Shown here: one piece after another, positions 3,251-59,890 of the stretch
Layout: the number at the start of each line of letters is the position of its first letter
Position numbering within the stretch: position 1 is the first letter of the stretch
Source: Bacillota bacterium
Lineage (GTDB): Bacteria; Bacillota; Peptococcia; Peptococcales; BICA1-8
Assembly (NCBI GenBank): GCA_049323895.1
Contig: JBMOKT010000008.1
Location: 12,985-76,984 of the forward strand
Reading direction: 5' to 3'
Length of the DNA: 64,000 nucleotides
Program-made: the position numbers and the translations under genes
The notes under the pieces: generated by a model
Databases searched by the model: none
What the model saw: only the letters and a program-made list of their open reading frames with translations
What the model was told of the DNA's origin: nothing

Positions 3251-3310
3251 TATTGAAATGTACTAAACTATGTGCTAATATGAATTATGTAATTATTAAT
3301 TTCATAAATT

Positions 3311-3397
3311 ACTAGGGGAGCCGGTAGGGCCGGCTGAGAGTTGACCATCTAAGTCTAGACCCTTGACCTGATCTGGGTAATGCCAGCGTAGGGAAGT
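3311..3397 (+). promoter_or_regulatory. TPP (THI-box) riboswitch aptamer
   Basis: actaGGGGagcc...ggCTGAGAg...ACCCTTgaCCTGATCTGGgTAATGCCAGCGTAGGGAAg matches the conserved THI-box core. It sits directly upstream of thiW. Confidence 0.9.
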
Positions 3398-3406
3398 ATG
3401 TTTTTA

Positions 3407-3441
3407 CACCTTTCCCCTGCCTTGGGAAAGGTGTTATTTTA
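3407..3441 (+). terminator. Riboswitch expression-platform terminator
   Basis: cacctttccc / gggaaaggtg 10-bp stem with a 7-nt loop, followed by ttatttta. It lies between the aptamer and the thiW SD. Confidence 0.8.
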
Positions 3442-3463
3442 TTTAAAAGGAGATGATTGTTTA

Positions 3464-3964
3464 ATGGCAACAAAAAAATTAACCTTTTCCGCCTTGCTGG
3501 TGGCTATAGGGACTTTATTGGGTCATCTTATTTACATACCCGCCGGGGTAGCCAAATGTTTTCCTGTGCAGCATACAATAAATGTCCTCTCCGCCGTACT
3601 ATTGGGACCTGGTTATGCTGTAGCAAATGCTTTTGTTATTTCTCTGCTGCGCAATATCCTTGGAACGGGCTCACCCCTTGCCTTCCCAGGAAGTATGCTG
3701 GGCGCATTATTAGCGGGCTTTTTGTATACCAGGTATAAGAAGAATTCTGCTGCAGTAGCCGGTGAAATATTTGGAACTGGAATTTTAGGGGGTATCGCCG
3801 CCTACCCCATTGCCAAATATGTTTTAGGAAGTGAAGCAGCTGTGTTTTTCTTTGTTACACCGTTCTTAGTCAGTACCATCGGAGGAAGCATTATTGGTTT
3901 GTTTATAATTAAACTTCTAGAAAAGAACCAATGGGTACAGCAACAAGGTTTTTTAAGTAAATAA
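3464..3964 (+). CDS. thiW: ECF-transporter S component ThiW (thiazole precursor uptake)
   Basis: The track ORF 3398..3964 is trimmed to the ATG at 3464 (MATKKLTFSALL), which follows AAAAGGAG. The protein is a small polytopic membrane protein with QHTINV..LGPGYA..AFPGSMLGALLAG. It sits under a TPP riboswitch. Confidence 0.8.
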   Translation: MATKKLTFSALLVAIGTLLGHLIYIPAGVAKCFPVQHTINVLSAVLLGPGYAVANAFVISLLRNILGTGSPLAFPGSMLGALLAGFLYTRYKKNSAAVAGEIFGTGILGGIAAYPIAKYVLGSEAAVFFFVTPFLVSTIGGSIIGLFIIKLLEKNQWVQQQGFLSK

Positions 3965-4345: not shown

Positions 4346-4357
4346 AACGCCTAAATT

Positions 4358-4470
4358 TAGTGGCTAGTATTTAGAAAAAGAGGACTGGCGACTGGTGAAA
4401 TAATGCCGTTGACTATTAGCCGTTGACTCTTAACTATTGACCGTATACTAGTGTAACTTACACTAGTATA
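4358..4470. repeat. Family-A short tandem repeat patch (tagtggctagt; gactggcgactggtga; gttgactattagccgttgactcttaactattgacc) ending in an 11-bp-stem palindrome tatactagtgt/acactagtata
   Basis: Direct reading of the convergent intergenic region. Confidence 0.75.
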
Positions 4471-9259: not shown

Positions 9260-9295
9260 AAAACGCCTTACGGCGTTTAGTGGCTAGTAAAACAC
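9258..9295 (+). repeat. Hairpin plus TAGTGGCTAGTAAAACAC module (family A variant)
   Basis: aaAACGCCttacGGCGTTTAGTGGCTAGTAAAACAC. A near-identical module occurs at 48357-48395, and a partial one at 4346-4368. Each directly follows a plus-strand stop codon. Confidence 0.7.
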
Positions 9296-9370
9296 TTTAA
9301 AAAAGCTGAACTGGGCTAGTTATACACAACTAAAAATTTATTTTTTCCTGAAGGATAAAAAAACTTCTTT

Positions 9371-12527: not shown

Positions 12528-12668
12528 AGTTACTAGTGACTGGTGACTGGTGACTTGTAAGTCTTAGACTTAACCTTAAAATACCGGAGTCGTATACTAG
12601 TAGGTATTATAGTTGATGGTCAATAGTTGATGGTCAATAGTCAATGGTCAGGTAGTAAATAGTGACCG
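12528..12668. repeat. Family-A tandem repeat patch: (ACTGGTG)x3, then (TTGATGGTCAATAG)x2.5
   Basis: tagttactagtgactggtgactggtgacttg ... atagttgatggtcaatagttgatggtcaatagtcaatggtcagg, read directly. Confidence 0.85.
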
Positions 12669-15671: not shown

Positions 15672-15731
15672 CTAGTCACTAGCAACTAATAGCTTTTTAC
15701 TAGCCACTAGCGACTAACAACTAGCCACTAA
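15672..15731. repeat. Family-A heptamer patch in inverted orientation (ctagtcactag..., tactagccactagcgactaacaactagccacta)
   Basis: Direct reading. It is the reverse complement of the TAGTGGC-type arrays and abuts the stop of the PLP gene. Confidence 0.8.
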
Positions 15732-17192
15732 TTAAAGCACCCCTGCATGCTTACATACAATCTCAATAAGTTTAACCAAAGCTCTCACGGCAATTCTCAT
15801 TCTGTCAGGGATTAGATTTCCATCGTCATCAGTAGTACCTAAACCGGTAGAAATATAGATGTTGCCATCGTAAGCAATTGTTGGAATTACACCAAATTTA
15901 GTCATCCCGGTTTGTAATATATTTGTTCCGGAATACATATCTTCGATGGAGAAGATAGGAATACCCATTTGTCCATTTTTCCAAGTGCCTTCGTAGTTTA
16001 CTTCCACAGCTGTAGAATTATATACCTTGGTTATCTTAATGCCATCTCTAAACTTAGCTGGGATATTCTTGAATTCTTCAACAACAATATCATACATTTC
16101 ATCAACAGGCTTAGTTAACACTTCAGGTTTATCACGCAGAACTTTTAATGCCTGCAGTTGAGTCAGCAAGGCTTCTTTACCTGGGTCAAAGGTTACATAT
16201 GCTGCTTTACCATAGGAGGATGGAGTTCCCCAACGGTCTCCATGCATACCTAGAGCGCGGCGGATAGGAACCATTACTTCTTCTTTTCCTATAATTAGTC
16301 CACTGGTGGCTGCTCCTGTGGCTTTATCCATACTGTAAGTAATTACGTCGCAATCAATTTTCACGGGGTCAATGCCTACGAAGGGAAGACCCCAGGCATT
16401 GTCAATTACATATGGTACATTATAGGAGTGTGCCAAGTCCGCAATATATTTGCAAAGTAATGGAGTGCCTTCCTCATCTTTAACTCCATAACCGTAACCA
16501 GGTGAAGGATAACCTAAAGAGGTAAAGCCTGTTAAAAATGCTTCGTGGATTTCAGCATGCAGGGCAATTCTTTCAATAGCCGCTTCCGGGTCAACTTCCG
16601 CTAGAAGTGGAACTGGATGGTTCTTAATTCCGTGGACTTCATACTTTGCACCTTCGAGTGGAACGATTACAGTATCAAGATTGTTTTGTCTCTTGCCATA
16701 GAAGCCTAACTCACCTGCAGTTGAACCCCTGTCGGCAAATAAATCCTTATATTTTCCCGGGAAAGGACGTCCATAACTGCCTTGGTGATGTAAATGCTTT
16801 TCATAGGGAGCAATATACCTTGCCCGGTAGTTGTCACCTCTTCCCTGCATGGGAGGTGTAAACAGGGTATCAAAGCAAGTCCAGAGAGTTGCTTCACAGG
16901 TACTGGTGGATGCAGCTTCCCAGCCATCACCATAAACATCTTTTACTACTTCCCTGATTTCATCCATTAATTTTGCCAGGGGAATTACTTCTTTGGCTCC
17001 GACTTCACCAGCTTCCAAAATATCTTTTCTTAAAGGAGCAGGACAACCTGAAATTGCACCGGTCAATCCAAACCTACCCCTAATCTCATGGGGAACACCA
17101 ATTTCATCTGCAGCCTTGGCTGCATCGGCATATATTTCAGGAACTTTGGCATGAAGCTGTTTGTACATTTGATATTTATATTTAGGACTCAT
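15732..17192 (-). CDS. Fold-type-I PLP enzyme of the SelA/DgaE-like group (possible ammonia-lyase or aminotransferase)
   Basis: 486 aa. YSMDKATGAATSGLIIGKEE resembles the PLP-lysine region of SelA-like proteins. AAGGAGG upstream. Confidence 0.5.
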   Translation of the reverse strand: MSPKYKYQMYKQLHAKVPEIYADAAKAADEIGVPHEIRGRFGLTGAISGCPAPLRKDILEAGEVGAKEVIPLAKLMDEIREVVKDVYGDGWEAASTSTCEATLWTCFDTLFTPPMQGRGDNYRARYIAPYEKHLHHQGSYGRPFPGKYKDLFADRGSTAGELGFYGKRQNNLDTVIVPLEGAKYEVHGIKNHPVPLLAEVDPEAAIERIALHAEIHEAFLTGFTSLGYPSPGYGYGVKDEEGTPLLCKYIADLAHSYNVPYVIDNAWGLPFVGIDPVKIDCDVITYSMDKATGAATSGLIIGKEEVMVPIRRALGMHGDRWGTPSSYGKAAYVTFDPGKEALLTQLQALKVLRDKPEVLTKPVDEMYDIVVEEFKNIPAKFRDGIKITKVYNSTAVEVNYEGTWKNGQMGIPIFSIEDMYSGTNILQTGMTKFGVIPTIAYDGNIYISTGLGTTDDDGNLIPDRMRIAVRALVKLIEIVCKHAGVL

Positions 17193-17214: not shown

Positions 17215-17278
17215 TAGTGACTAGTGACTAGTCTTTTATTAGTAGTTAGTGGCTAGTGGCTAGTGGCTAGTTGGCTAG
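17215..17278. repeat. Family-A heptamer array: (TAGTGAC)x2, then (TAGTGGC)x3-4
   Basis: tagtgactagtgactagtcttttattagtagttagtggctagtggctagtggctagttggctag. It starts 4 nt upstream of the SD of the PLP gene. Confidence 0.9.
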
Positions 17279-20054: not shown

Positions 20055-20074
20055 TTGTGAATTCCACCTTTTTC

Positions 20075-20177
20075 TTAGAAACACGGCTTGCGCCGAGCCT
20101 TTGGCGACTGCGGAAGCCGATGTTGCACTTATACTTATTACCTTGTAAAAGTTATACTATCCTGATAAGTATGAAAA
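20075..20177 (+). repeat. Family-C conserved element, copy 1 (about 100 nt)
   Basis: ttagaaacacggcttgcgccgagcctttggcgactgcggaagccgatgttgcacttatacttattaccttgtaaaagttatac... is nearly identical to 59751-59856 and highly similar to 40374-40477. Confidence 0.85.
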
Positions 20178-20215
20178 AGCAACCTCGTAAAGTTTAAAAA
20201 GGTTGCTTTTATTTT
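20174..20215. terminator. Bidirectional hairpin terminator (3' of repeat C1 and of the GGDEF gene)
   Basis: aaaaaGCAACCTcgtaaagtttaaaaAGGTTGCttttatttt. Confidence 0.7.
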
Positions 20216-22615: not shown

Positions 22616-23059
22616 TCACCTTTTTCTAAAATAGTTTATAGAATATGGAATTAGAAATAATAGTATAACATATGGAAGAGAAATAATAATACGCATTCTA
22701 ATATCATAAGATAGAACTTCAGAAGAAACGTTTAGTATTTTAATCATTGTACTTGTAGATATGGTTTCTACTATAATCAAAATTAATATTGTACTAATAC
22801 TTACGACAATCGCCTTATTAATGCTAACTTCACCATACTTACTTACAATAAAAAATAATAAACCTATCGCAATGATTGTATGAACTCCAAAGGTAACAGG
22901 CATAAGTCTAATTAAATAGGATGATAGTGATAAAATGACACCAAAAGTAATTATTACTTTTATATTTAACTTTGATTTACTTAAAACTAAAGCTAGATAA
23001 ACAAGAAATATATTTTCAGGCACACCTAGAAACAACCATACTATAAAAGGCATCTTCAT
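22616..23059 (-). CDS. Polytopic membrane protein (147 aa), first gene of the agr unit
   Basis: 4-5 TM segments. Its stop is 4 nt from the agrB start. It resembles a stand-alone membrane sensor module; no kinase domain. Confidence 0.55.
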   Translation of the reverse strand: MKMPFIVWLFLGVPENIFLVYLALVLSKSKLNIKVIITFGVILSLSSYLIRLMPVTFGVHTIIAIGLLFFIVSKYGEVSINKAIVVSISTILILIIVETISTSTMIKILNVSSEVLSYDIRMRIIISLPYVILLFLIPYSINYFRKR

Positions 23060-23486: not shown

Positions 23487-24326
23487 TTAGTACTCAGGGG
23501 GCAGGTCTTTTAGCTGCTCCATGGTAAATACCGGTCCATCCAGACAAACATAACATGAACCAATATTGCAGCGCCCACATTTTCCAATACCGCATTTCAT
23601 TCTCATTTCTAAAGTGGTAATAATATCAGTATCAGCAAAATTCATCTTCTTTAGACCTTGCAAAGTAAACTTAATCATGATGGGAGGTCCGCACAAGATG
23701 GTAACCTGGGGCTTGGGAGCAAGCTCCTCAACGTATGAAGGTACAAAACCCACATGCCCATCCCAGCCTTCTTCTTCCCTGTCGATTGTTACACAAACAT
23801 CCATATTGGGAACCTTGGGCCAATTTTCAAATAAGTCTTCTTTGAAACACAGGTCTCCTTTGCTTCTGGCACCATAAACAACTGTTAACTTGCCAAAGTC
23901 ATCCCGGTTTTTTACACAGTGCATAATCAGACTGCGTACAGGTGCCAGCCCTATACCGCCACCGATAAAGAGAATATCCTTCCCTTTACAGTAGTCTATA
24001 GGAAAACCATTGCCGTATGGTCCGCGAATACCCACTTCCTGCCCGACTTCTATTTCATGCAAGGAATTAGTCAATTGACCTACAGCCCTAATTGCCATTT
24101 CTATATGATTTTCACCCTTATTAGTGATAGAAAACATGCCTTCGCCTATAGCAGGCATTGATAGCATCCCCAACTGACCAGGCGCAGGGTCAAAAGGTAT
24201 TTTGCCATCTATGGTGCTGATGTGAAAGGTTTTTACATCATGGGTTTCCTGGACAATATCGATAATTTTCCCTCTTATAGGTACTAGAGGATTAATTCTT
24301 TTCACCTCTTCAGGAGTAATTGCCAA
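23487..24326 (-). CDS. FlxA-like FAD/NAD(P)-binding oxidoreductase with a C-terminal [2Fe-2S] motif (AsrB/HydG-like)
   Basis: 279 aa. TTG start with GGAGGG 6 nt upstream. GGGIGLAP nucleotide-binding motif. C-terminal CGIGKCGRCNIGSCYVC. Confidence 0.7.
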   Translation of the reverse strand: MAITPEEVKRINPLVPIRGKIIDIVQETHDVKTFHISTIDGKIPFDPAPGQLGMLSMPAIGEGMFSITNKGENHIEMAIRAVGQLTNSLHEIEVGQEVGIRGPYGNGFPIDYCKGKDILFIGGGIGLAPVRSLIMHCVKNRDDFGKLTVVYGARSKGDLCFKEDLFENWPKVPNMDVCVTIDREEEGWDGHVGFVPSYVEELAPKPQVTILCGPPIMIKFTLQGLKKMNFADTDIITTLEMRMKCGIGKCGRCNIGSCYVCLDGPVFTMEQLKDLPPEY

Positions 24327-24345
24327 TCTTCTCCCTCCTTTTCAT

Positions 24346-24476
24346 TAGTGGCTAATGTTAGTGGCTAGTTGTTAGTGGCTAGTGGCTAGTAAATAGTTAC
24401 TGGTGACTGGTGACTGGTGACTGGTTACTGGTTACTAGACAACGGTCGATGGCTAATAGTCGATAGCCAATAGCTA
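24346..24476. repeat. Family-A array block: (TAGTGGC)n, then (ACTGGTG/ACTGGTT)n, then cgatggctaatagtcgatagccaatagc
   Basis: ttagtggctaatgttagtggctagttgttagtggctagtggctagtaaatagttactggtgactggtgactggtgactggttactggttactag..., read directly. It starts 6 nt upstream of the flxA-like SD. Confidence 0.9.
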
Positions 24477-24563
24477 TATTTTTAAAAGCTGATTTACCAC
24501 GCTCCTGTTATTAGCTGGTAATAACAAATCCGTTGAATCTCAGTCCGCAAAGCAAAATCTAAT

Positions 24564-24603
24564 CTTTTTCTGTAGCCACTGTAGACACTGTAGCTACTGT
24601 AGG
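24564..24603. repeat. Family-A nonamer array CTTTTTCTGTAGcca CTGTAGaca CTGTAGcta CTGTAG
   Basis: Direct reading; it ends 11 nt from the stop of the flxB-like gene. Confidence 0.9.
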
Positions 24604-24614
24604 TTCTATTAGGT

Positions 24615-25604
24615 CTACGCTTCCTGTATCTTCTTAATAACAGACGTTATATCAAGGTTCACGGGGCATTTGGTTACACAACGTCCGCATCCTGTGCATA
24701 AAAGCATATTATACCTCTCTGGGAAGTAACGAAGCTTGTGCAAGAAACGGTTCCTGACCCGTTCCTTCTTGCCCGGTCTGGGCTGGTGTCCGCCGGCCAT
24801 CATTGTATATTCGTCAAACATACAGCAGTCCCAGCAGCGTATTTTGACTCCATCTTCCCCCCGCACTTCATTGGCAATGTCAAAACAGTGGCAGGTTGGA
24901 CATACATAGGCACAGGCACTGCAGTTCAGACATTTGCGGGAAATATCATCCCAGATGGGGTGGTCAAACATATCTTTCAGCTTCTCAGGAACACCTTCTA
25001 CATCTGCAGCCAGGGTGAACTCTCCCACCGCCGGAATAGCTGCATCTTCCTCTTGCAGAAGTCCGGAAACTTTATTTAGTATCTCTGTTCCCTTGTCAGA
25101 AAGAGGCTCAAACCCTATTTTCTCGCCTAAATCATAAGCTTGGATATCCGCACCTTGTCCTTTTTGAGGGTCTATACCCATAGATGAACAAAAGCAGGAA
25201 GCCATTGGTTTTACACAGCTTAAAGCGATAAAAATACTGCGATCCCTTTTTTCCTGATAATAGGGGTCTACAAAACCTTTAGTTAGAAAAACTTGGTCTA
25301 GGCAATCTATACTCTTCATATCACAGGAACGTACTCCAAATAGAACCTGAGTTTCTTTTTCACCGGGTATTTCTTCAATTTCCAGTGACTGATCCTTAGT
25401 CTTAAACTTATACATTTTCTCCGTTTGAGGGAAGAAAATATCCTTGGGAGGCATAACTACATTTTCCTCCAGGGCCAGTTCAACATCCTGCTGGTAAGGA
25501 GCAAACCTGGTGACTCCTTGGAATTTAGCAGGGACTAAGACCTTATATTCCTTGGCCAGTGATTCTAAAAACTGGGGTAAATTAGCCTTGGCTATAGTTT
25601 TCAT
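24615..25604 (-). CDS. FlxB-like iron-sulfur protein (AsrA/HydB-like 4Fe-4S dicluster protein)
   Basis: 329 aa. CLNCSACAYVCPTCHC and CTGCGRCVTKCP ferredoxin-type motifs. Confidence 0.65.
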   Translation of the reverse strand: MKTIAKANLPQFLESLAKEYKVLVPAKFQGVTRFAPYQQDVELALEENVVMPPKDIFFPQTEKMYKFKTKDQSLEIEEIPGEKETQVLFGVRSCDMKSIDCLDQVFLTKGFVDPYYQEKRDRSIFIALSCVKPMASCFCSSMGIDPQKGQGADIQAYDLGEKIGFEPLSDKGTEILNKVSGLLQEEDAAIPAVGEFTLAADVEGVPEKLKDMFDHPIWDDISRKCLNCSACAYVCPTCHCFDIANEVRGEDGVKIRCWDCCMFDEYTMMAGGHQPRPGKKERVRNRFLHKLRYFPERYNMLLCTGCGRCVTKCPVNLDITSVIKKIQEA

Positions 25605-25616
25605 CCTAACACCTCC

Positions 25617-26516
25617 CTACATAAATTCTTCTGGGTCATCTTTATCAAAGTGACCTAAAGGAAGTTTACCTTGCGGATCAATACCGGCATCATACTCACC
25701 AAACAAATCATTTATATCCTTAATAAGCTTTTTATTTAACAGCATAATGGGTATGTCCATGGGACAAGCCCTTTCACACTCACCACATTCAATACATCTG
25801 CCGGCAACATGCATAGCCCGGGTCAGAGCAAAGAACTGGTTTTCTGACGAGTTGTTAGCCTTGCCTATCCAGCCCACTCTTGTCTGGTCAAAAATACACT
25901 CCCGGCAGCTGCAGGCAGGACATACATTGCGGCAGGCATAACAACGCAAGCACCTTTCATACTGTTTGGTCCAAAATTCATATTTCTCATCAGGTGTCAT
26001 TTCCTCCAAGGCTTTAACATCTGAATAGTCTACTGCCTCTTTGGTAGCTGCTACCTCTTTCAGGGCTTGGGCATCTCCAATAAAATAATCATAAACTACA
26101 GGATTGGGATATTTGCATTCCACACATTTTTGTGCTGCAGGAATATCGCCCCCTGCACCAAGTTCCTTGGCTTTATCCTGGTCTTTTAAACCATGACACG
26201 GTATGCCGATAAGGATTACCTTGTCCCGCTCAATCTGCTTATCCTGTAACAATCTATTAAAGGCACGGGCGTCACAGCCCTTAACAAAAACTGCTGCTTT
26301 CCCCTCATGGGTGGTATACTCTGTTAAATACTTGCTTAAATTATTGTGGCAATAGTCATCCCAGACAAGCCTTGCCGCGTCTTCGGGTTTATCAATGAAG
26401 GCTGGCGGGGACAAATACCAAAAAGTACCCTTTTCCCAACCAATAACAACCTCAGCTTCACCTTTTTCCAAAATTTCCCGGGCAATGTCTTGCATTTTTT
26501 TGGTTATCTCATTCAT
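25617..26516 (-). CDS. FlxC-like iron-sulfur protein
   Basis: 299 aa. CLRCYACRNVCPACSCRECIF and CIECGECERACP motifs. Overlaps mvhD by 4 nt. Confidence 0.6.
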   Translation of the reverse strand: MNEITKKMQDIAREILEKGEAEVVIGWEKGTFWYLSPPAFIDKPEDAARLVWDDYCHNNLSKYLTEYTTHEGKAAVFVKGCDARAFNRLLQDKQIERDKVILIGIPCHGLKDQDKAKELGAGGDIPAAQKCVECKYPNPVVYDYFIGDAQALKEVAATKEAVDYSDVKALEEMTPDEKYEFWTKQYERCLRCYACRNVCPACSCRECIFDQTRVGWIGKANNSSENQFFALTRAMHVAGRCIECGECERACPMDIPIMLLNKKLIKDINDLFGEYDAGIDPQGKLPLGHFDKDDPEEFM

Positions 26517-26950
26517 TGGGCATCCCTCAACTTCCTGTTAGGCCCCATAGCCCTAATTTCATCAGTAATTTGAGTAACAACCTGCTGGAATTTTGGACCC
26601 TCGGAGCCGGAAATCCATCTGGCTTGGAAACGTTCCGGGTCAACACCTACATATTGCAATAAACGCTGCATCAACATATAACGTCTGCGAGTGAAATAGT
26701 TGCCTGATACATAGTGACAATCCCCTGGATGGCAGCCGGCAACCAGCACACCATCTACACCCCTCTGAAACGCCCTGATTACAAACTGGGGATTTACCCG
26801 TCCCGAGCATGGCACCCGGAGAATTCTTATATTAGGCGGGTACTGCAGACGGCTTAAGCCAGCCAGGTCAGCACCGGCATAGGTACACCAGTTACAGGCA
26901 AAGACCAGGATTTTAGGTTCCCAGTTTTGTTGGTTCTCCTTTACAGACAC
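26513..26950 (-). CDS. mvhD: MvhD/FlxD-type hydrogenase delta-subunit-like iron-sulfur protein
   Basis: 145 aa. ILVFACNWCTYAGADLAG...RVPCSGRV is typical of MvhD. Overlaps the hdrA 3' end. Confidence 0.8.
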   Translation of the reverse strand: MSVKENQQNWEPKILVFACNWCTYAGADLAGLSRLQYPPNIRILRVPCSGRVNPQFVIRAFQRGVDGVLVAGCHPGDCHYVSGNYFTRRRYMLMQRLLQYVGVDPERFQARWISGSEGPKFQQVVTQITDEIRAMGPNRKLRDAQ

Positions 26951-28923
26951 AGTGCATCCACCTCCGCCAAAATTTGTTCGTTAGTAAAGTGTTTCAGGTT
27001 CAATGCTGCGGAACGACAGGCAACAGTACAAGCTCCGCAGCCTTGGCATAAGCCGCTGTTTACTGCAGCAACACTTCGGGAAACTGTTTTGCCGTGTGCC
27101 CTCTCTTGAATGGTCTTCATATCAATTGCCTTATAGGGACATACAGGCACACACATACCACATCCTGCACAAATAGCCTCATTGACTTCAGAGATAATAG
27201 GTTCTGTAGCCATTTGATCCTTGGACAGAAGTCCGCAAGCCTTAACTGCAGCTGCACTGGCCTGGGCAACCGAATCAGGTATATCCTTGGGTCCCTGGCA
27301 AGCCCCAGCCAGAAAAACACCAGCAGTATGGGTTTCTACAGGAGCCAGCTTGGGATGGGCCTCTGTATAGAAGTGGTTCTGGTCATAGGAGAAACCTACC
27401 ATTTGCGCTAATTTTGCCGCATCGGTCTTAGCAATCATAGCCGTAGCCAGAACTACCATATCTGCTTCTACTTCTACGGGTCTGCCCAAAAGGGTGTCCT
27501 CACCGCGAACCATCAGCTTGCCACCTTTTTCATATATCTTGGAAACCCTGCCTCTGATATACTTGGCACCATATTGGTCAGTTGTTCGGGTGTAGAACTC
27601 ATCATAACCCTTACCAGGAGTGCGGACATCCATGTAAAACACGTAGACATTAGAGTCCTTAATCTTTTCTCTGACCAAAGTGGCATGTTTTGCCGTATAC
27701 ATACAGCAGGTTTTGGAACAATAAGCCTTGCCTTTTGCCTCATCCCGCGAGCCAACACACTTAATGAACACCACATTCTTCGGTATTTGCCCGTCGGAAG
27801 GTCTTTTGATTTTTCCCATGGTAGGACCGGAAGCATTAATTAACCTTTCGAAGTGCAGTCCGGTAATAACATCCTTATACTTGCCATAGCCGTACTCACC
27901 ATAGACTTTTTCGTCGAAGAGGTCAAAGCCGGTAGCTACGACGATAGCACCATATCTTTCCTTGACAAGTTCATCCTCTTGGGTAAAATCAACGGCATTG
28001 GTAGGACATACCTTTTGACATACTCCGCATTTGCCAGTTTTAAAGTAACGGCAGTTTGCCCTGTCAATGACAGGCTTATTGGGAATAGCCTGAGGGAAAG
28101 GAGTATAGATGGCTTTACGGTCCATCATTTCCATTTCAAATTCACTGGGTACTTTGGACGGGCATTTCTGATAACAGGTGCCGCATCCCGTACAAGCCTT
28201 CAGGTCAACTGAACGGGCTTTCTTTCTAATTGTTATATCAAAGTTGCCTACATAGCCTTCTACCTTTTCAATTTCCGAAAAAGTTATCAGGTTTACATTA
28301 GGATGATTGGCGACCTCAACCATTTTGGGTGTTAAAATACAAGCTGAACAGTCCAAGGTTGGAAAGGTTTTATCAATCTGGGCCATACGCCCGCCAATGG
28401 ATGGTTCTTTTTCTACCACATCTACAATATGACCGGCATTGGCAATATCTAAGGCAGCCTGGATACCGGCAATACCTCCACCAATTACCAAGGCACGCTT
28501 AGTGATGGGAATAGTAGACCTCTGCAGTGATTCATTTTTCAGAACCTTAGCCACAGCCATCCTTACTAATTCAGTAGATTTAAAGGTAGCACGTTCCTTA
28601 TCATCGGGGTGCACCCAAGAACAATGCTCCCGTATATTGGCCATTTCCAATAAATAAGGATTTAAGCCCCCGCTTTCAATACACCTGCGGAAAGTAGGCT
28701 CATGCATCCGGGGTGAACAGGATGCTACAACAATCCTATCCAGCTTATGGTCCTTAATGGCTTTTTTGATTAGTTCCTGTCCAGGCTCAGCACACATATA
28801 CTTGTAGTCAGTACTGTATGCAACCCCTGGAAAGCTTTTGGCATTTTCTGCAACCTTTTCACAATCAACACTTGCGGCGATATTGGTACCGCAGTGACAA
28901 ATAAATACACCTACACGCTTCAT
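26941..28923 (-). CDS. hdrA: Heterodisulfide reductase subunit A-like flavoprotein
   Basis: 660 aa. VIGGGIAGIQAALD FAD motif, several CxxCxxCxxxCP ferredoxin motifs, N-terminal VFICHCG. Confidence 0.85.
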   Translation of the reverse strand: MKRVGVFICHCGTNIAASVDCEKVAENAKSFPGVAYSTDYKYMCAEPGQELIKKAIKDHKLDRIVVASCSPRMHEPTFRRCIESGGLNPYLLEMANIREHCSWVHPDDKERATFKSTELVRMAVAKVLKNESLQRSTIPITKRALVIGGGIAGIQAALDIANAGHIVDVVEKEPSIGGRMAQIDKTFPTLDCSACILTPKMVEVANHPNVNLITFSEIEKVEGYVGNFDITIRKKARSVDLKACTGCGTCYQKCPSKVPSEFEMEMMDRKAIYTPFPQAIPNKPVIDRANCRYFKTGKCGVCQKVCPTNAVDFTQEDELVKERYGAIVVATGFDLFDEKVYGEYGYGKYKDVITGLHFERLINASGPTMGKIKRPSDGQIPKNVVFIKCVGSRDEAKGKAYCSKTCCMYTAKHATLVREKIKDSNVYVFYMDVRTPGKGYDEFYTRTTDQYGAKYIRGRVSKIYEKGGKLMVRGEDTLLGRPVEVEADMVVLATAMIAKTDAAKLAQMVGFSYDQNHFYTEAHPKLAPVETHTAGVFLAGACQGPKDIPDSVAQASAAAVKACGLLSKDQMATEPIISEVNEAICAGCGMCVPVCPYKAIDMKTIQERAHGKTVSRSVAAVNSGLCQGCGACTVACRSAALNLKHFTNEQILAEVDALCL

Positions 28924-29807
28924 GCAGTATCCCTCCTGCCTTCAGCCTCAACCAGCTTTTTGGCTAAACTCACAGCATCCACAAAATGCTTATTTAAACC
29001 TAATTCTCCCGGATTCATACCAAGGGCTAAACCCATCAATTCAGTAAAATAAAATACAGGCAGCTTGTAATCTTTACCAAACTTAGCCTCTACCTGGGTT
29101 TGACGCATGTCAAGGTTATTCATGCATAAGGGGCAAGCTGTGGCAATGCAGTCTGCTCCGGCATCCTTAGCTGCTGTTAAAATTTTCTCAATCATGGAGA
29201 AACCAACCTCGGATTTGGTAGTAGCATGGGCTGCTCCACAGCACTCGGTCTTAAAGGCCCAGTCTACAGGGGTCCCCCCCATGGCTTTAACTAAATTATC
29301 CATGCTTTGAGGATCTTCCGCGTCATCAAAACCCAATTTGGGCGGGCGTACCAAAAGGCATCCGTAATAACTTGCAACCTTTAAATCCTTTAGAGGATTA
29401 TTAACCAGAGTGTTTACAGCTTCCAGACCTAAGTCATTGACAAACACATCTAATAAGGCCCTGGCTTTGGCTTTTCCGGTATATTCCCGTTCAATTACTT
29501 CATTAATGGTATTTCTCATTTCCATTGACTGGCTGGCTTCCACCTCTGTCGCTTTGCATCTGGCATAACATGCAGCACAAGGAATTGCTACATCCAACCC
29601 TTTTGCCTCGGCAATAGCCAGATTCCTGGCGGGCAAGGCCAATGCCAGCAGATGGTCTGTTAAATGGGCACTGGAGGCGCCGCAGCAGTTCCATTCGGGA
29701 ATTTCCCAAAGCTCAATACCTAAAGCAGCAGCAACTTTTTTGGTGGATATATCATATTCAATTCCGGTGGAACTCAAGGAACATCCTGGGTAATATGCAT
29801 ATTTCAT
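28920..29807 (-). CDS. hdrB: Heterodisulfide reductase subunit B-like (two CCG domains)
   Basis: 295 aa. WNCCGAS and TECCGAAH CCG motifs. Confidence 0.85.
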   Translation of the reverse strand: MKYAYYPGCSLSSTGIEYDISTKKVAAALGIELWEIPEWNCCGASSAHLTDHLLALALPARNLAIAEAKGLDVAIPCAACYARCKATEVEASQSMEMRNTINEVIEREYTGKAKARALLDVFVNDLGLEAVNTLVNNPLKDLKVASYYGCLLVRPPKLGFDDAEDPQSMDNLVKAMGGTPVDWAFKTECCGAAHATTKSEVGFSMIEKILTAAKDAGADCIATACPLCMNNLDMRQTQVEAKFGKDYKLPVFYFTELMGLALGMNPGELGLNKHFVDAVSLAKKLVEAEGRRDTA

Positions 29808-30373
29808 ACCTTTCCACCCCGCTTCCGGACATTAGCAAATATCTTCTTTACTTCCCCGTTATCTTTGATTGTATGGGGCAGTGGAGATAATTTTCCTTTT
29901 AACAGCATACTGGGACCAAAGTGGGCATCTTTAAGAGGCTGCATGCTGAAAATATTAAAGCCCAGTATTAAACCCATTTCGTGTACACGTCCATGATTTT
30001 CTACAGATTTTAAGAAGAGATTATGGAAGATGTCCATTTTCTTTTCAGTGATATAGCCTTTTTTCTTAGCTATAATCCTTAAAGTCTCCATTACCCGGGC
30101 TATGTCAACTTCTCTGGGACACCTGGTTGAACAGGTATCGCAGCTAGCACAGAGCCAGATAGTATGAGAATGCAAAGCATCATCCATAAGCCCCAGCTGT
30201 ACTAACCGCATTATTTCCCGGGGAGTTTTATCCATCGCAAAAGCAACAGGACACCCGGCTGAACATTTACCACACTGATAGCATTTTGAAGCCCTAACGC
30301 CGCTTTCTTGTGTCACCTCGGCTAAAACCTCTTGCCCTTTGGCTAAAGCAGCAGTTAGTTCAATCCTTTCCAT
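29804..30373 (-). CDS. hdrC: Heterodisulfide reductase subunit C-like (4Fe-4S dicluster)
   Basis: 189 aa. CYQCGKCSAGCP and CASCDTCSTRCP motifs. GGAGG upstream. Confidence 0.85.
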   Translation of the reverse strand: MERIELTAALAKGQEVLAEVTQESGVRASKCYQCGKCSAGCPVAFAMDKTPREIMRLVQLGLMDDALHSHTIWLCASCDTCSTRCPREVDIARVMETLRIIAKKKGYITEKKMDIFHNLFLKSVENHGRVHEMGLILGFNIFSMQPLKDAHFGPSMLLKGKLSPLPHTIKDNGEVKKIFANVRKRGGKV

Positions 30374-40193: not shown

Positions 40194-40373
40194 ATTTTCA
40201 TCCTTTCTAACAATTAAATAGCCTTATAACAATAGTTTATTTCCAAACCTATATTGTGGTTCTTAAACAAATTAAATTAGGATATTATTTTGCCAAACTT
40301 TAAACGAAAAAAGCTACCAACTAAAGTAATTTTCTCTAATAGCAAATACCATATTTTGGAGGTAACATTTTAC

Positions 40374-40477
40374 TTAGAAAACACAGTTTACACCGAGCCT
40401 TTAGCGACTGCGGAAGCCGATGTTGCTCTTATACTTATTACCTTGTTAAAGTTATACTTTTTGGATAAGTACAAAAA
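40374..40477 (+). repeat. Family-C conserved element, copy 2 (most diverged)
   Basis: ttagaaaacacagtttacaccgagcctttagcgactgcggaagccgatgttgctcttatacttattaccttgttaaagttatac... Confidence 0.85.
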
Positions 40478-40518
40478 AATCCCTTACCACTTTAATAGTG
40501 ATGCGGGATATTGCTTTA

Positions 40519-45380: not shown

Positions 45381-45408
45381 TAAAAGGGCGGACACACATG
45401 TCCGCCCC
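45381..45408 (-). terminator. Intrinsic terminator after copZ
   Basis: Minus sense: GGGCGGACatgtgtGTCCGCCC followed by ttttaaa. Confidence 0.7.
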
Positions 45409-45421
45409 TACAAGATATTTG

Positions 45422-45462
45422 CTTTTTCTGTAGTACTGTAGTTACTGTAGCACTGTAGTCAC
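45422..45462. repeat. Family-A nonamer array CTTTTTCTGTAGta CTGTAGtta CTGTAGca CTGTAGtca
   Basis: Direct reading; it ends 16 nt from the copZ stop. Confidence 0.9.
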
Positions 45463-45478
45463 TTACCACAAAGAATTA

Positions 45479-48357: not shown

Positions 48358-48449
48358 AAAACGTCTGCGGCGTTTAGTGGCAAGTAAAACACATAAAAAC
48401 CTTTCTACTATAACAAAATCCCAAAGAACTTAATGGGGCTTTCCGCCAA

Positions 48450-50675: not shown

Positions 50676-50814
50676 CTCTTAAAAACATAGTAATTGAAAT
50701 ATTTTATCATAATATGGTAATGGAAGTATTTTATCATAATAGGTATTGAATATCTTGTCGAAATTAGTAATTATGTAAAGAAGAAATTGTTTATCATATA
50801 AAAATGTTGCCGTA

Positions 50815-57414: not shown

Positions 57415-57633
57415 TTAATCACCTCCAGACAAATCAAATTCTTTTATAACCTGTTCTTCGCCGGAGATAATTTCCTGGATTATTTGCAGGCAGGAATTGC
57501 ACAAAAGCAAGTCTCCTACCACCTGCTTTCTATGCCAAATTACCATTCTTTTTTCAACTATCTCCAGACGATCACACAAGTTGCATTTATATTTCTTGGC
57601 AGCCTGATAAGGCTGGATATCGATTTTGTTCAT
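57415..57633 (-). CDS. Small zinc-ribbon-like protein (CxxC...CxxC)
   Basis: 72 aa. KCNLCDRLE...LLCNSCLQ. AAGGAGGG upstream. Its stop is 1 nt from the YvrJ start. Confidence 0.55.
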   Translation of the reverse strand: MNKIDIQPYQAAKKYKCNLCDRLEIVEKRMVIWHRKQVVGDLLLCNSCLQIIQEIISGEEQVIKEFDLSGGD

Positions 57634-57650
57634 GTAAACCCTCCTTTTAT

Positions 57651-57731
57651 TAGTAGTGGCTAGTTGTTAGTGGCTAGTGGCTAGTGGCTAGTAAGGATTA
57701 GTTACTGATGTCTAGTGCCAGGTGACTGGTA
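57651..57731. repeat. Family-A array block: (TAGTGGC)n, then gttactg/gtgactggt
   Basis: tagtagtggctagttgttagtggctagtggctagtggctagtaaggattagttactgatgtctagtgccaggtgactggt. It starts about 5 nt upstream of the SD of the Zn-ribbon gene. Confidence 0.9.
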
Positions 57732-57825
57732 TATGTATGGAAGTATGAGAGTGGGAAAGTTTAATAGTTTGATATGTAGGGGGAGGTTTCCATGCCGCCC
57801 CCCCACAAATAAAACTTCCTTCTAT

Positions 57826-57870
57826 CTTTTTCTGTAGCTACCGTAGTCACTGTAGATACTGTAGCTACTG
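57826..57870. repeat. Family-A nonamer array CTTTTTCTGTAGcta CcGTAGtca CTGTAGata CTGTAGcta CTG
   Basis: Direct reading; it ends 22 nt from the stop of the DUF2922 gene. Confidence 0.9.
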
Positions 57871-57892
57871 ATTCAGATGCCTTTCAACTACC

Positions 57893-58117
57893 TTACACAC
57901 TAACCAATTCAGTGACCTGACGGTTAATCAACCTTGCTCCCACAATTCCTACCAAATCTCCGCCTGTTGAATCAATAACATTGGCGGCGATTATACTATT
58001 CATTGCGGCTTCCACCTCTGTTGAGGTAAGCTCAGCCCTGGGGTCAAGAATACTAAGGGTGACCCTGCCGTTGGCGGCATTGCTGAAAATCATCTGCAGA
58101 GTTTTAGTCTCATCCAT
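57893..58117 (-). CDS. DUF2922-family small protein
   Basis: 74 aa. TLQMIFSNAANGRVTLSILDPRAELTSTEVEAAMNSII pattern. Paired with DUF1659 as in many Firmicutes. Confidence 0.6.
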   Translation of the reverse strand: MDETKTLQMIFSNAANGRVTLSILDPRAELTSTEVEAAMNSIIAANVIDSTGGDLVGIVGARLINRQVTELVSV

Positions 58118-59713: not shown

Positions 59714-59751
59714 GCCAGTGTATTTCCATTGGAAATATATTGGTTATTTTT
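59714..59751 (+). terminator. Intrinsic terminator after dat
   Basis: CCAGTGTATTTCCAtTGGAAATAtATTGG followed by ttatttttt. Confidence 0.7.
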
Positions 59752-59856
59752 TAGAAAAACACGGCTTGCGCCGAGCCTTTGGCGACTGCGGAAGCCGATG
59801 TTGCACTTATACTTAACACCTTATAAAAGCTATACTTTCTAAACAAATATGTGAAA
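59751..59856 (+). repeat. Family-C conserved element, copy 3
   Basis: ttagaaaaacacggcttgcgccgagcctttggcgactgcggaagccgatgttgcacttatacttaacaccttataaaagctatac... Confidence 0.85.
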
Positions 59857-59890
59857 GAGAACCGAAATTTCCGGTTCTCTTTTGTTATTT
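59856..59890 (+). terminator. Hairpin terminator immediately 3' of repeat C3
   Basis: AGAGAACCGgaaatttCCGGTTCTCT followed by tttgttattt. Confidence 0.7.

Follow-up and report, generated by a model that had tools for sequence, protein, structure and literature searches.

In a 64-kb stretch of low-GC (37.8%) DNA from an uncultured Bacillota metagenome-assembled genome (MAG), hereafter the window, the gap at 57634-57892 lies between the gene of a DUF2922 protein and that of a 72-aa cysteine-rich protein, and it carries an array of 9-nt units (nonamers) close to the stop codon of the first gene and arrays of 7-nt units (heptamers) close to the Shine-Dalgarno sequence (SD) of the second. The reading favoured here, with confidence somewhat above even, is that of an ancestral short gap expanded by simple-sequence-repeat arrays, whose orientation in the untranslated mRNA is constrained by the neighbouring genes. 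The composite look of the gap, which recurs at 24327-24614 and which an earlier note on this DNA had taken for a single architecture, appears to be a co-occurrence of two array types and neither one unit nor a mobile element, because only the repeat parts align between the two gaps, the two halves also occur alone, and the halves are not complementary to each other.

Since the genes of this region are all encoded on the minus strand, it is the reverse complement that is read below (Table 1). The DUF2922 gene ends with a TAA stop (57893-57895) and the nonamer array begins after 22 nt; the layout had been recognized in the earlier note as a block of four units at this distance, which is right except that only three of the units are exact copies of CTACAG, the fourth being CTACGG. 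The spacer of about 90 nt with a G/C hairpin that had been described there measures 95 nt, with the hairpin at 57806-57776; its GUGGGGGGGCGG..CCUCCCCCUAC stem (G5/C5) has no U-tract and is not called as a terminator. A degenerate heptamer run, which aligns to the (ACCAGTN)5 of the 24k gap, precedes the SD-proximal heptamers; here the described order of (CTAGCCA) block and SD is correct, while the SD lies about 10 nt, and not 5, past the last CTAGCCA. The SD-proximal array is essentially unstructured in the predicted fold (z -0.2); the nonamer array folds on itself (-15.8 kcal/mol, z -3.9), which its copy at 45k does not do.

The two-part layout, in which a stop-proximal block, a spacer and an SD-proximal block follow each other, is found in both gaps, and the alignment agrees with the earlier proposal that block order and boundaries are common to them. 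In particular, the common parts are the nonamer block with CTACAGAAAAAGAT, the ACCAGTNACC (ACCAGTN) heptamers, an identical 33-nt block TTACTAGCCACTAGCCACTAACAACTAGCCACTA, and AAAAGGAGGG; the spacers, of 95-130 nt, are unrelated. The halves stand alone elsewhere in the window, heptamers at 17k, 12k and 15.7k and nonamers at 45k, and the two half-sites that had been proposed are found, one SD-proximal (17215-17278) and one stop-proximal (45422-45463). The single composite architecture itself has to be given up, since to these unrelated spacers and solitary, non-complementary halves are added one heptamer array (15699-15733) that lies inverted, directly past a stop, and the absence of the architecture at both orthologous sites of relatives.

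If the two halves were the arms of an intercistronic hairpin, acting in translational coupling, RNase III-type processing or mRNA stabilisation, they would be expected to pair. This is the case in other genomes, where 46 distinct gaps with both orientations hold mutually complementary arrays that fold to about -54 kcal/mol, and in the centroid fold of the 24k gap an 8-bp AGUGGCUA/UAGCCACU pairing connects the last nonamer to a heptamer. Unlike those hairpin-forming pairs, however, the halves of the window showed no pairing beyond that of shuffled sequences in either composite (duplex energy -28.2 vs -25.5 +/- 3.8 kcal/mol for shuffles at 57k, and -20.6 vs -18.9 +/- 3.3 kcal/mol at 24k), the whole-gap folds are no more stable than shuffles (z -1.6 at 57k and -0.08 at 24k), and units of 9 and 7 nt cannot keep register. 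The hairpin-arm explanation is already disfavoured computationally and is considered very improbable.

The ancestral state of the 57k gap is visible in a syntenic relative (contig L119) encoding a 62%-identical Zn-ribbon protein, in which the DUF2922/Zn-ribbon gap is only 85 nt long and has no repeats. It contains a hairpin (GGGAGGG..CCCTTCCC), a T-run and an SD, with the hairpin in the same position as in the window; because this gap has the hairpin without the arrays, the 57k hairpin is probably ancestral and the arrays were probably added on both sides of it. The history of the 24k composite is read from the operon that contains it, since the genes on either side of it come last in a series of eight that form an hdrCBA/mvhD/FrhB-like/Fer4_22/NAD-binding operon (23487-30373), conserved in Gracilibacter-like relatives (L192-L197). 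The Fer4_22 and NAD-binding genes are separated by 0-1 nt in L193, L194 and L195 (84-85% identity) and in the Gracilibacter contigs L196 and L197 (83%), and the SD of these abutting genes, AAGGAGG, is located within the end of the upstream gene. In the window 288 nt separate the same two genes (24327-24614); the old internal SD has degenerated into ACAGGAAGCG, the downstream gene begins with TTG, and the insert carries a new AAAAGGAGGG at its end. Since the orthologous genes abut in relatives, the 24k composite is an insertion into the operon, which brought a new ribosome-binding site with it.

The closest relative, L192 (88%), has a gap of 246 nt with a different interior, in which only ACTAGTC ACCAGTA (then ACTTAAT AATAAAGGAGGG) adjoin the start; the end of this gap carries AAAGGAGGG after its two heptamers. 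Among the relatives compared, the long insert before the last operon gene is found only in this MAG and in GCA_012720075.1, and in both genomes the ancestral internal SD is decayed and the start has changed from ATG to TTG or GTG. No such arrays were found in about 95 kb of DNA from relatives with 83-88% protein identity; on these comparisons the arrays appear to be recent, lineage-specific and fast-evolving. Insertion as a unit of a mobile or duplicative non-autonomous element (MITE-, REP- or BIME-like) would be in keeping with a 24k composite that demonstrably came between formerly adjacent genes and with the end sequences that the two composites have in common. It is difficult to reconcile with their unrelated interiors, in which only array parts align, with the lack of terminal inverted repeats or target duplications, with halves that are found alone, and with the L192 insert, whose interior is different and which has only two heptamers beside its SD; the latter suggests a gradual growth in situ, and a mobile element is judged highly unlikely.

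Each gap could also be the place where one transcription unit gives way to another, with the nonamers in a 3'-untranslated region (3'-UTR) before a terminator and the heptamers in a leader behind a promoter in the spacer. The nonamers at 45k, which begin 11 nt past the stop of an HMA gene, are in fact followed by a strong hairpin (45384-45409; -21.5 kcal/mol, z -4.0) and UUUUAAAU, a terminator-like arrangement although uncalled by a simple terminator scan, and a hairpin follows the DUF2922 stop both at 57k and in L119, in the latter with a T-run. Against this, a sigma-70-like promoter scan (alternative sigma-factor promoters were not modelled) and an intrinsic-terminator scan gave none in the 57k, 24k and 45k gaps, the 57k hairpin has no U-tract, and the 24k composite lies inside the eight-gene operon at a junction where the orthologues abut; this explanation is therefore regarded as improbable. 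A search of Rfam 15 at gathering and permissive thresholds assigned no family to the 57k and 24k gaps, the best sub-threshold matches being far below gathering.

Table 1. Features of the 57k gap and of the other repeat-bearing gaps of the window (sequences as read on the mRNA strand except where indicated).
Feature	Position	Strand	Basis or remark
57k: upstream cistron, 74-aa DUF2922 protein	57893..58117	minus	open reading frame list; Pfam PF11148, E 6.6e-25
57k: stop-proximal nonamer array CAGTAG CTACAGTAT CTACAGTGA CTACGGTAG CTACAGAAAAAG (last part = CTACAG + AAAAAG)	57826..57870	minus	TRF period 9; enrichment
57k: hairpin GGGGGGGCGG...CCUCCCCC in 95-nt spacer	57776..57806	minus	fold -21.8 kcal/mol, z -2.5
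57k: degenerate heptamers ACCAGTC ACCTGGC ACTAGAC ATCAGTA ACTAATC	57696..57730	minus	regex scan
57k: SD-proximal heptamers (ACTAGCC)3 ACTAACA ACTAGCC ACTACTA, after CTT	57651..57692	minus, forward on mRNA	TRF period 7, score 64
57k: SD AAGGAGGG	57639..57646	minus	preceded by AT AA; TTTAC (5 nt) then ATG (57633)
57k: downstream cistron, 72-aa Cys-rich (CxxC...CxxC) protein	57415..57633	minus	open reading frame list
24k: stop-proximal half CTACAGTAG CTACAGTGT CTACAGTGG CTACAG + AAAAAG	24564..24602	minus	TRF, enrichment, alignment
24k: SD-proximal half (ACCAGTN)5, ACTAGCC ACTAGCC ACTAACA ACTAGCC ACTAACA TTAGCC ACTAATG	24343..24432	minus	TRF, alignment, regex scan
17k: heptamers only, CTAGCCA ACTAGCC x3 ACTAACT ACTAATA AAAG ACTAGTC ACTAGTC ACTAAAT, then TAAGGAGG	17215..17278	minus	mismatch search, regex scan
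45k: nonamers only, CTACAGTG CTACAGTAA CTACAGTA CTACAG + AAAAAG	45422..45463	minus	sequence, exact motif search
15.7k: ACTAGCC ACTAGCG ACTAACA ACTAGCC ACTAATT	15699..15733	plus (complement orientation on mRNA)	regex scan
12k: ACCAGTC ACCAGTC ACTAGTA (12531-12551) + three 14-mers TGACCATCAACTAT (12609-12663)	12531..12663	minus	TRF, regex scan

The window contains in total eight arrays in six gaps, five of which are heptamer-bearing (Tandem Repeats Finder, TRF, and unit listing), and all eight fall within the approximately 15% of the DNA that is non-coding (coding fraction 0.85). The evidence for them comes from TRF, a regex scan, mismatch-tolerant motif counts against expectation and unit-by-unit listing. 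TRF reports arrays of period 7 at 57654-57692, 24346-24436, 17215-17278, 15699-15730 and 12532-12555; CTACAGNNNCTACAG with at most one mismatch has 9 matches in the window (0.13 expected) and CTAGCCACTAGCCA with at most two mismatches has 14 (0.27 expected), and CTACAGAAAAAG occurs exactly three times, always on the minus strand and each time closing a nonamer array. At 24k the nonamer block begins 12 nt past the TAG stop of the Fer4_22 gene, and the heptamers are followed by AAAAGGAGGG (24333-24342) and by the TTG start (24326). The 17215-17278 array is the 5' leader of a 486-aa gene, and the array at 15699-15733, inverted with respect to it, sits directly past the stop of the same gene; the latter and those at 12531-12551 and 12609-12663, in the leader of a 79-aa gene whose SD follows about 85 nt downstream, come in addition to the arrays previously listed. 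The inverted pair (15699-15737 and 17233-17271; 39 nt, 85% complementary) brackets the 486-aa gene, whose product is PLP-enzyme-like, and the 5' and 3' ends of its mRNA could therefore pair. Just past the stops of plus-strand genes, relics of one or two units (TTAGTGGCTAGT, GACTGGCGACTGGTGA) are present at 4357-4398, 9271-9302 and 48368-48399, the last two having a 32-nt block in common (91% identity).

The orientation of the arrays in the window is non-random. In particular, the nonamer arrays follow a stop in three of three cases, the four start-side heptamer arrays are all forward, reading ACYAGYC on the mRNA strand before an SD, and the sole heptamer array adjacent to a stop (15699-15733) is in complement orientation. 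Among all the loci fetched from other genomes and contigs, gaps with both orientations have the complement first and the forward array second in 62 cases (+4) and the reverse order in 2; this order is strand-symmetric, as is proper of a palindrome-type arrangement, and alone is no proof of a polarity linked to genes. For this reason the unpaired arrays were counted on their own: their arrow points to the nearer gene in 84 cases vs 42, and arrays beside starts are forward in 37 and complement in 12, while beside stops the complement prevails by only about 1.6:1 (47 vs 30). In the 46 distinct two-orientation gaps the median distance is 7 nt from the stop to the first arm and 16.5 nt from the end of the second arm to the start codon. 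Four viral contigs of IMG/VR (L231, L246, L256, L286; GC about 0.6) carry arrays in almost every intergenic gap, with NNACTRR units (CCACTGA, TTACTGA, TCACTGA and TAACTGA) and always in the order stop, complement array, loop, forward array, start. In L256 the layout can be read directly (for example at 1838-1990 and 2199-2325) as stop, (TCAGTAA)n or (TCAGTGG)n, loop, (CCACTGA)n or (TTACTGA)n, and start. These viral pairs form long hairpins (about -54 kcal/mol), and in 31 of 43 the fold is slightly better on the opposite strand.

On the basis of their units, the heptamers of the window (ACTAGCC, ACTAACA, ACCAGTC, ACTAGTC) belong to a superfamily NNACYRR that includes the published TAACTGA repeats. 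A scan of a genome collection for (CTAGCCA)2.6 gave more than 117 genome loci among the matches listed, which do not include the source or its close relatives; the hosts among these matches are Planctomycetota, Acidobacteriota, Cyanobacteria, Bacteroidota, Proteobacteria, Patescibacteria, Clostridia and a Peptococcaceae MAG, and the loci usually mix sibling units (ACTAGTC, ACCAGCC, ACCAGTC, ACTAACC). The exact 25-mer ACTAGCCACTAACAACTAGCCACTA is present in 59 metagenome contigs of 33-64% GC. In other genomes the arrays are intergenic in 130 of 131 cases. Viral contigs hold 18 loci of (CTAGCCA)n and 113 of (CCACTGA)n, against 1 and 10 of the controls (CATGCCA)n and (CGATCCA)n, and in L246, L256 and L286 TAACTGA co-occurs with CCACTGA and TTACTGA. 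The units vary by transitions (ACTAG, ACTAA, ACTGA, ACCAG, ACTGG). An array of a Megasphaera sp. contig (L028, rc 7728) grades from CCCTAAC through CCCTAGC to CCACTAG and CCACTAA and ends at ATG, and would represent a snapshot of unit evolution by single transitions. The matches to CTACAGNNNCTACAGAAAAAG among viral contigs were all coding PTE/PTD repeats and have no bearing on these arrays. None of 8 million full texts searched by exact sequence contains the repeats.

The sequence of events favoured above would start from an ancestral gap formed by a stop, a hairpin and a ribosome-binding site, in which arrays later grew in this lineage. The forward strand, which is C-rich and G-poor, lies in the leader just upstream of a start and its complement just past a stop, and the growth of both array kinds in one co-directional gap would give the two composites of the window. 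Slipped-strand mispairing is the most likely origin, probably with copying between gaps, which is suggested by the 33-nt block and AAAAGGAGGG being identical at the two loci. As their operon context implies, the arrays would be transcribed within polycistronic mRNA; at 24k, genes that formerly abutted and were presumably translationally coupled have been separated by the insert, and the downstream one now uses the new SD at its end. The most likely role, advanced here tentatively, may be that of a mostly unstructured, start-codon-free leader or spacer RNA, with stops in all frames, that uncouples neighbouring cistrons, and the orientation may be kept by selection against GUG-rich, G-rich sequence beside starts. 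Folding predictions give no structure for the heptamer blocks (z -0.2 and -1.6), and the forward strand has no AUG, GUG or UUG and a stop in every frame; stop-codon content does not differ between forward and complement arrays (about 75% of units in both), so that the all-frame stops are a property of the unit and not of its orientation.

Several observations weigh against this explanation, in addition to the strand symmetry of the 62 to 2 order and the modest bias beside stops. The predicted accessibility of the ribosome-binding site is no higher with native leaders than with dinucleotide-shuffled ones in four of four gaps, so that a simple role in keeping this site open is unsupported; inversion of the leader lowered the predicted accessibility in only two of the four. 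The assignment of the nonamer CTACAGTNN to the complement type, by which it may be taken as the complement of NNACTGTAG with two bases more than units of the ACAGTAA/TCAGTGG type, depends on resemblance to ACAGTAA and TCAGTGG only, and the order of the 57k gap fits the layout of complement after stop and forward before start only if this assignment is accepted. A search of 2.5 Mb from other loci yielded no nonamer array. The source genome is represented by the 64 kb examined, and the gene calls of the wider survey are crude, being based on open reading frame length and GC3. Lastly, the recurrence of identical units across phyla is hard to explain by slippage alone and hints at a shared factor or mechanism.

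Because one unit family is thus present in many phyla and in phage-like contigs, the explanations that invoke a binding factor or a templated origin retain some probability. In one of them, considered possible but unlikely, the NNACYRR arrays and their 9-nt derivative constitute one pan-bacterial and phage cis-element system with a fixed gene-linked layout, either read by a conserved component of translation or RNA decay or laid down by a templated repeat-adding or copying mechanism; the composite of the window would then be the Bacillota version of this system, able to create ribosome-binding sites inside operons. In the other, to which a similarly small share of belief is given, the arrays are multivalent sites for a candidate trans-acting factor that binds single-stranded nucleic acid and controls a post-transcriptional regulon, each 7-nt period corresponding to one binding module on RNA of the form (ACUAGCC)n or (CUACAGUNN)n; the candidates are a cold-shock-domain protein, an S1-domain protein, the ribosome or a HutP-like protein reading UAG every 7 nt. 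Such a site has been proposed for the sibling TAACTGA repeats (PMC4679880). It would be consistent with the recurrence of the heptamer family in unrelated phyla and viral contigs, with the 37 to 12 enrichment of the forward orientation directly before starts, with the UAG at 7-nt period of (ACUAGCC)n, and with the presence of arrays in nearly every gap of some viral contigs, which is hard to square with junk in compact genomes. Against it stand the free variation of units by transitions, which destroys the UAG in siblings such as ACCAGUC, the close relatives that run the same operons without arrays, and the unrelated functions of the window genes downstream of arrays.

A last explanation places the action at the DNA level, the arrays being contingency (phase-variation) loci or hotspots of recombination or replication slippage whose polarity is incidental. 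Many bacteria have an excess of heptamer simple sequence repeats, which slip readily (Mrazek 2007, according to PMC4679880 and PMC4692102), and short-read assemblies break inside the array of the 57k gap: two independent short Logan contigs of the same organism (SRR32167787), whose sequence is that of the window, stop within the ACTAGCC units, L001 at 57678 and L120 at 57663, and overlap by 16 nt in the array (57663-57678). Because the arrays fragment short-read assemblies, their copy numbers in MAGs have to be taken with caution. However, the arrays are located between stop and SD, outside promoter spacers and reading frames, so that a change in copy number would be no classical on/off switch, and their orientation is tied to the neighbouring gene even when they are unpaired; an action of this kind is thought quite improbable.

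The arrays belong to a known and unexplained class of intergenic heptanucleotide repeats, which comprises STRR, long simple sequence repeats, TAACTGA and GGGAATC (PMC4679880, PMC4692102, PMC6749651). The traits of the class that they show are at least three tandem 7-nt units, several loci per genome, exclusively non-coding location and a sporadic, lineage-specific abundance. STRR heptamers were reportedly described in cyanobacteria by Mazel in 1990 and the long simple sequence repeats of prokaryotes by Mrazek in 2007. The arrays resemble both in being heptanucleotide arrays over-represented in intergenic DNA, with several unit families per genome, an origin attributed to polymerase slippage and no established function, whereas the surveys of those repeats are not known to report a gene-linked polarity or a two-half intercistronic layout. 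TAACTGA direct repeats are known from marine Beggiatoaceae, some Cyanobacteria and Bacteroidetes, in which many arrays of 2-6 or more copies are scattered between genes and read forward just upstream of starts, and a translational role has been proposed for them (MacGregor 2015, PMC4679880). The arrays of the window are similar in their tandem 7-nt units conforming to NNACYRR, their intergenic, forward position before starts and their sporadic, lineage-specific occurrence, and different in the units (ACTAGCC, ACTAACA, ACCAGTC), in the low-GC Bacillota host, in lying upstream of a canonical SD (AAGGAGGG or AAAAGGAGGG) at 57k, 24k and 17k where TAACTGA repeats replace the SD, and in the extra 9-nt stop-proximal array with its fixed CTACAGAAAAAG end. 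The half that follows a stop as complement does not appear in the TAACTGA paper, apart from one 'indirect repeat' (PMC4679880). The GGGAATC/GGGGAYT heptamers of Xanthomonas and Nostoc are G-rich and form G-quadruplexes (Rehm 2015, PMC4692102); they are likewise intergenic, typically with about four units, sometimes in inverted pairs and variable between close relatives, but the units of the window are without G-runs and the forward strand is G-poor.

Outside this class, the comparison can be extended to two other systems. The REP/BIME sequences of enterobacteria are imperfect palindromes of about 35 nt mobilised by RAYT transposases; they are also short, orientation-specific repeats of intercistronic regions or 3'-UTRs and can lie a few nt from stops, while the arrays of the window are made of tandem 7-9-nt units and their halves are non-palindromic. 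HutP recognizes on the Bacillus hut mRNA UAG triplets with 4-nt spacers, in one pair of three-triplet sites overlapping one terminator. The (ACUAGCC)3 at 57k and 17k likewise shows at least three UAG at a 7-nt period; in contrast to the HutP site, however, the arrays are found at many loci, have sibling (ACCAGUC)n arrays without UAG, and occur in phyla not known to have HutP.

As regards the neighbourhood of the 57k gap, a DUF1659 gene precedes the DUF2922 gene, and YvrJ and Amidase_2 genes come after the 72-aa gene. A Pfam search of the 72-aa protein gave no family, and only two clusters (100% and 62% identity) are present in a database of 5.8 billion proteins; this small zinc-ribbon-like protein has a very narrow distribution. 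The Pfam scan covered 20 of the approximately 70 proteins of the window. Identical database proteins are named 'MAG: ... [Bacillota bacterium]' and lie on a 345-kb contig, and the nearest named relatives of one operon protein are from Gracilibacter sp. BRH_c7a (83%), Syntrophobotulus glycolicus (81%) and Dehalobacter (78%). Elsewhere in the window there are a thiamine pyrophosphate (TPP) riboswitch (RF00059, 74 bits) at 3304-3411, upstream of the plus-strand gene 3398-3964 and the sole Rfam match above the gathering score, and two unrelated 27-nt tandem duplications at 22637-22688 and 50684-50745 (TRF scores 74 and 89), the first of which adjoins an AgrB-like gene cluster. A dispersed element of about 111 nt is present in three copies, 82-86% identical, at 20069-20179, 40369-40479 and 59747-59857, all in plus orientation on whichever strand the flanking genes lie. 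A 5' stem-loop is predicted in this element and conserved, and Rfam has no family that matches it; it is a candidate small-RNA gene family or DNA element.

Intergenic heptamer repeats have been known for about 35 years without an accepted function. To these the window adds a dated event, in which a repeat-bearing insert split two abutting genes of a conserved hdr-like operon and supplied a new ribosome-binding site; the wider survey adds breadth, with one unit superfamily across many phyla and viral contigs, and a polarity rule, forward before starts and complement after stops (62 to 2 when paired), that any mechanism has to explain. In practical terms, the arrays break short-read assemblies and inflate intergenic gaps in MAGs. 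If their polarity reflects an interaction with translation or RNA decay, the arrays would be a common and overlooked class of untranslated-region elements.

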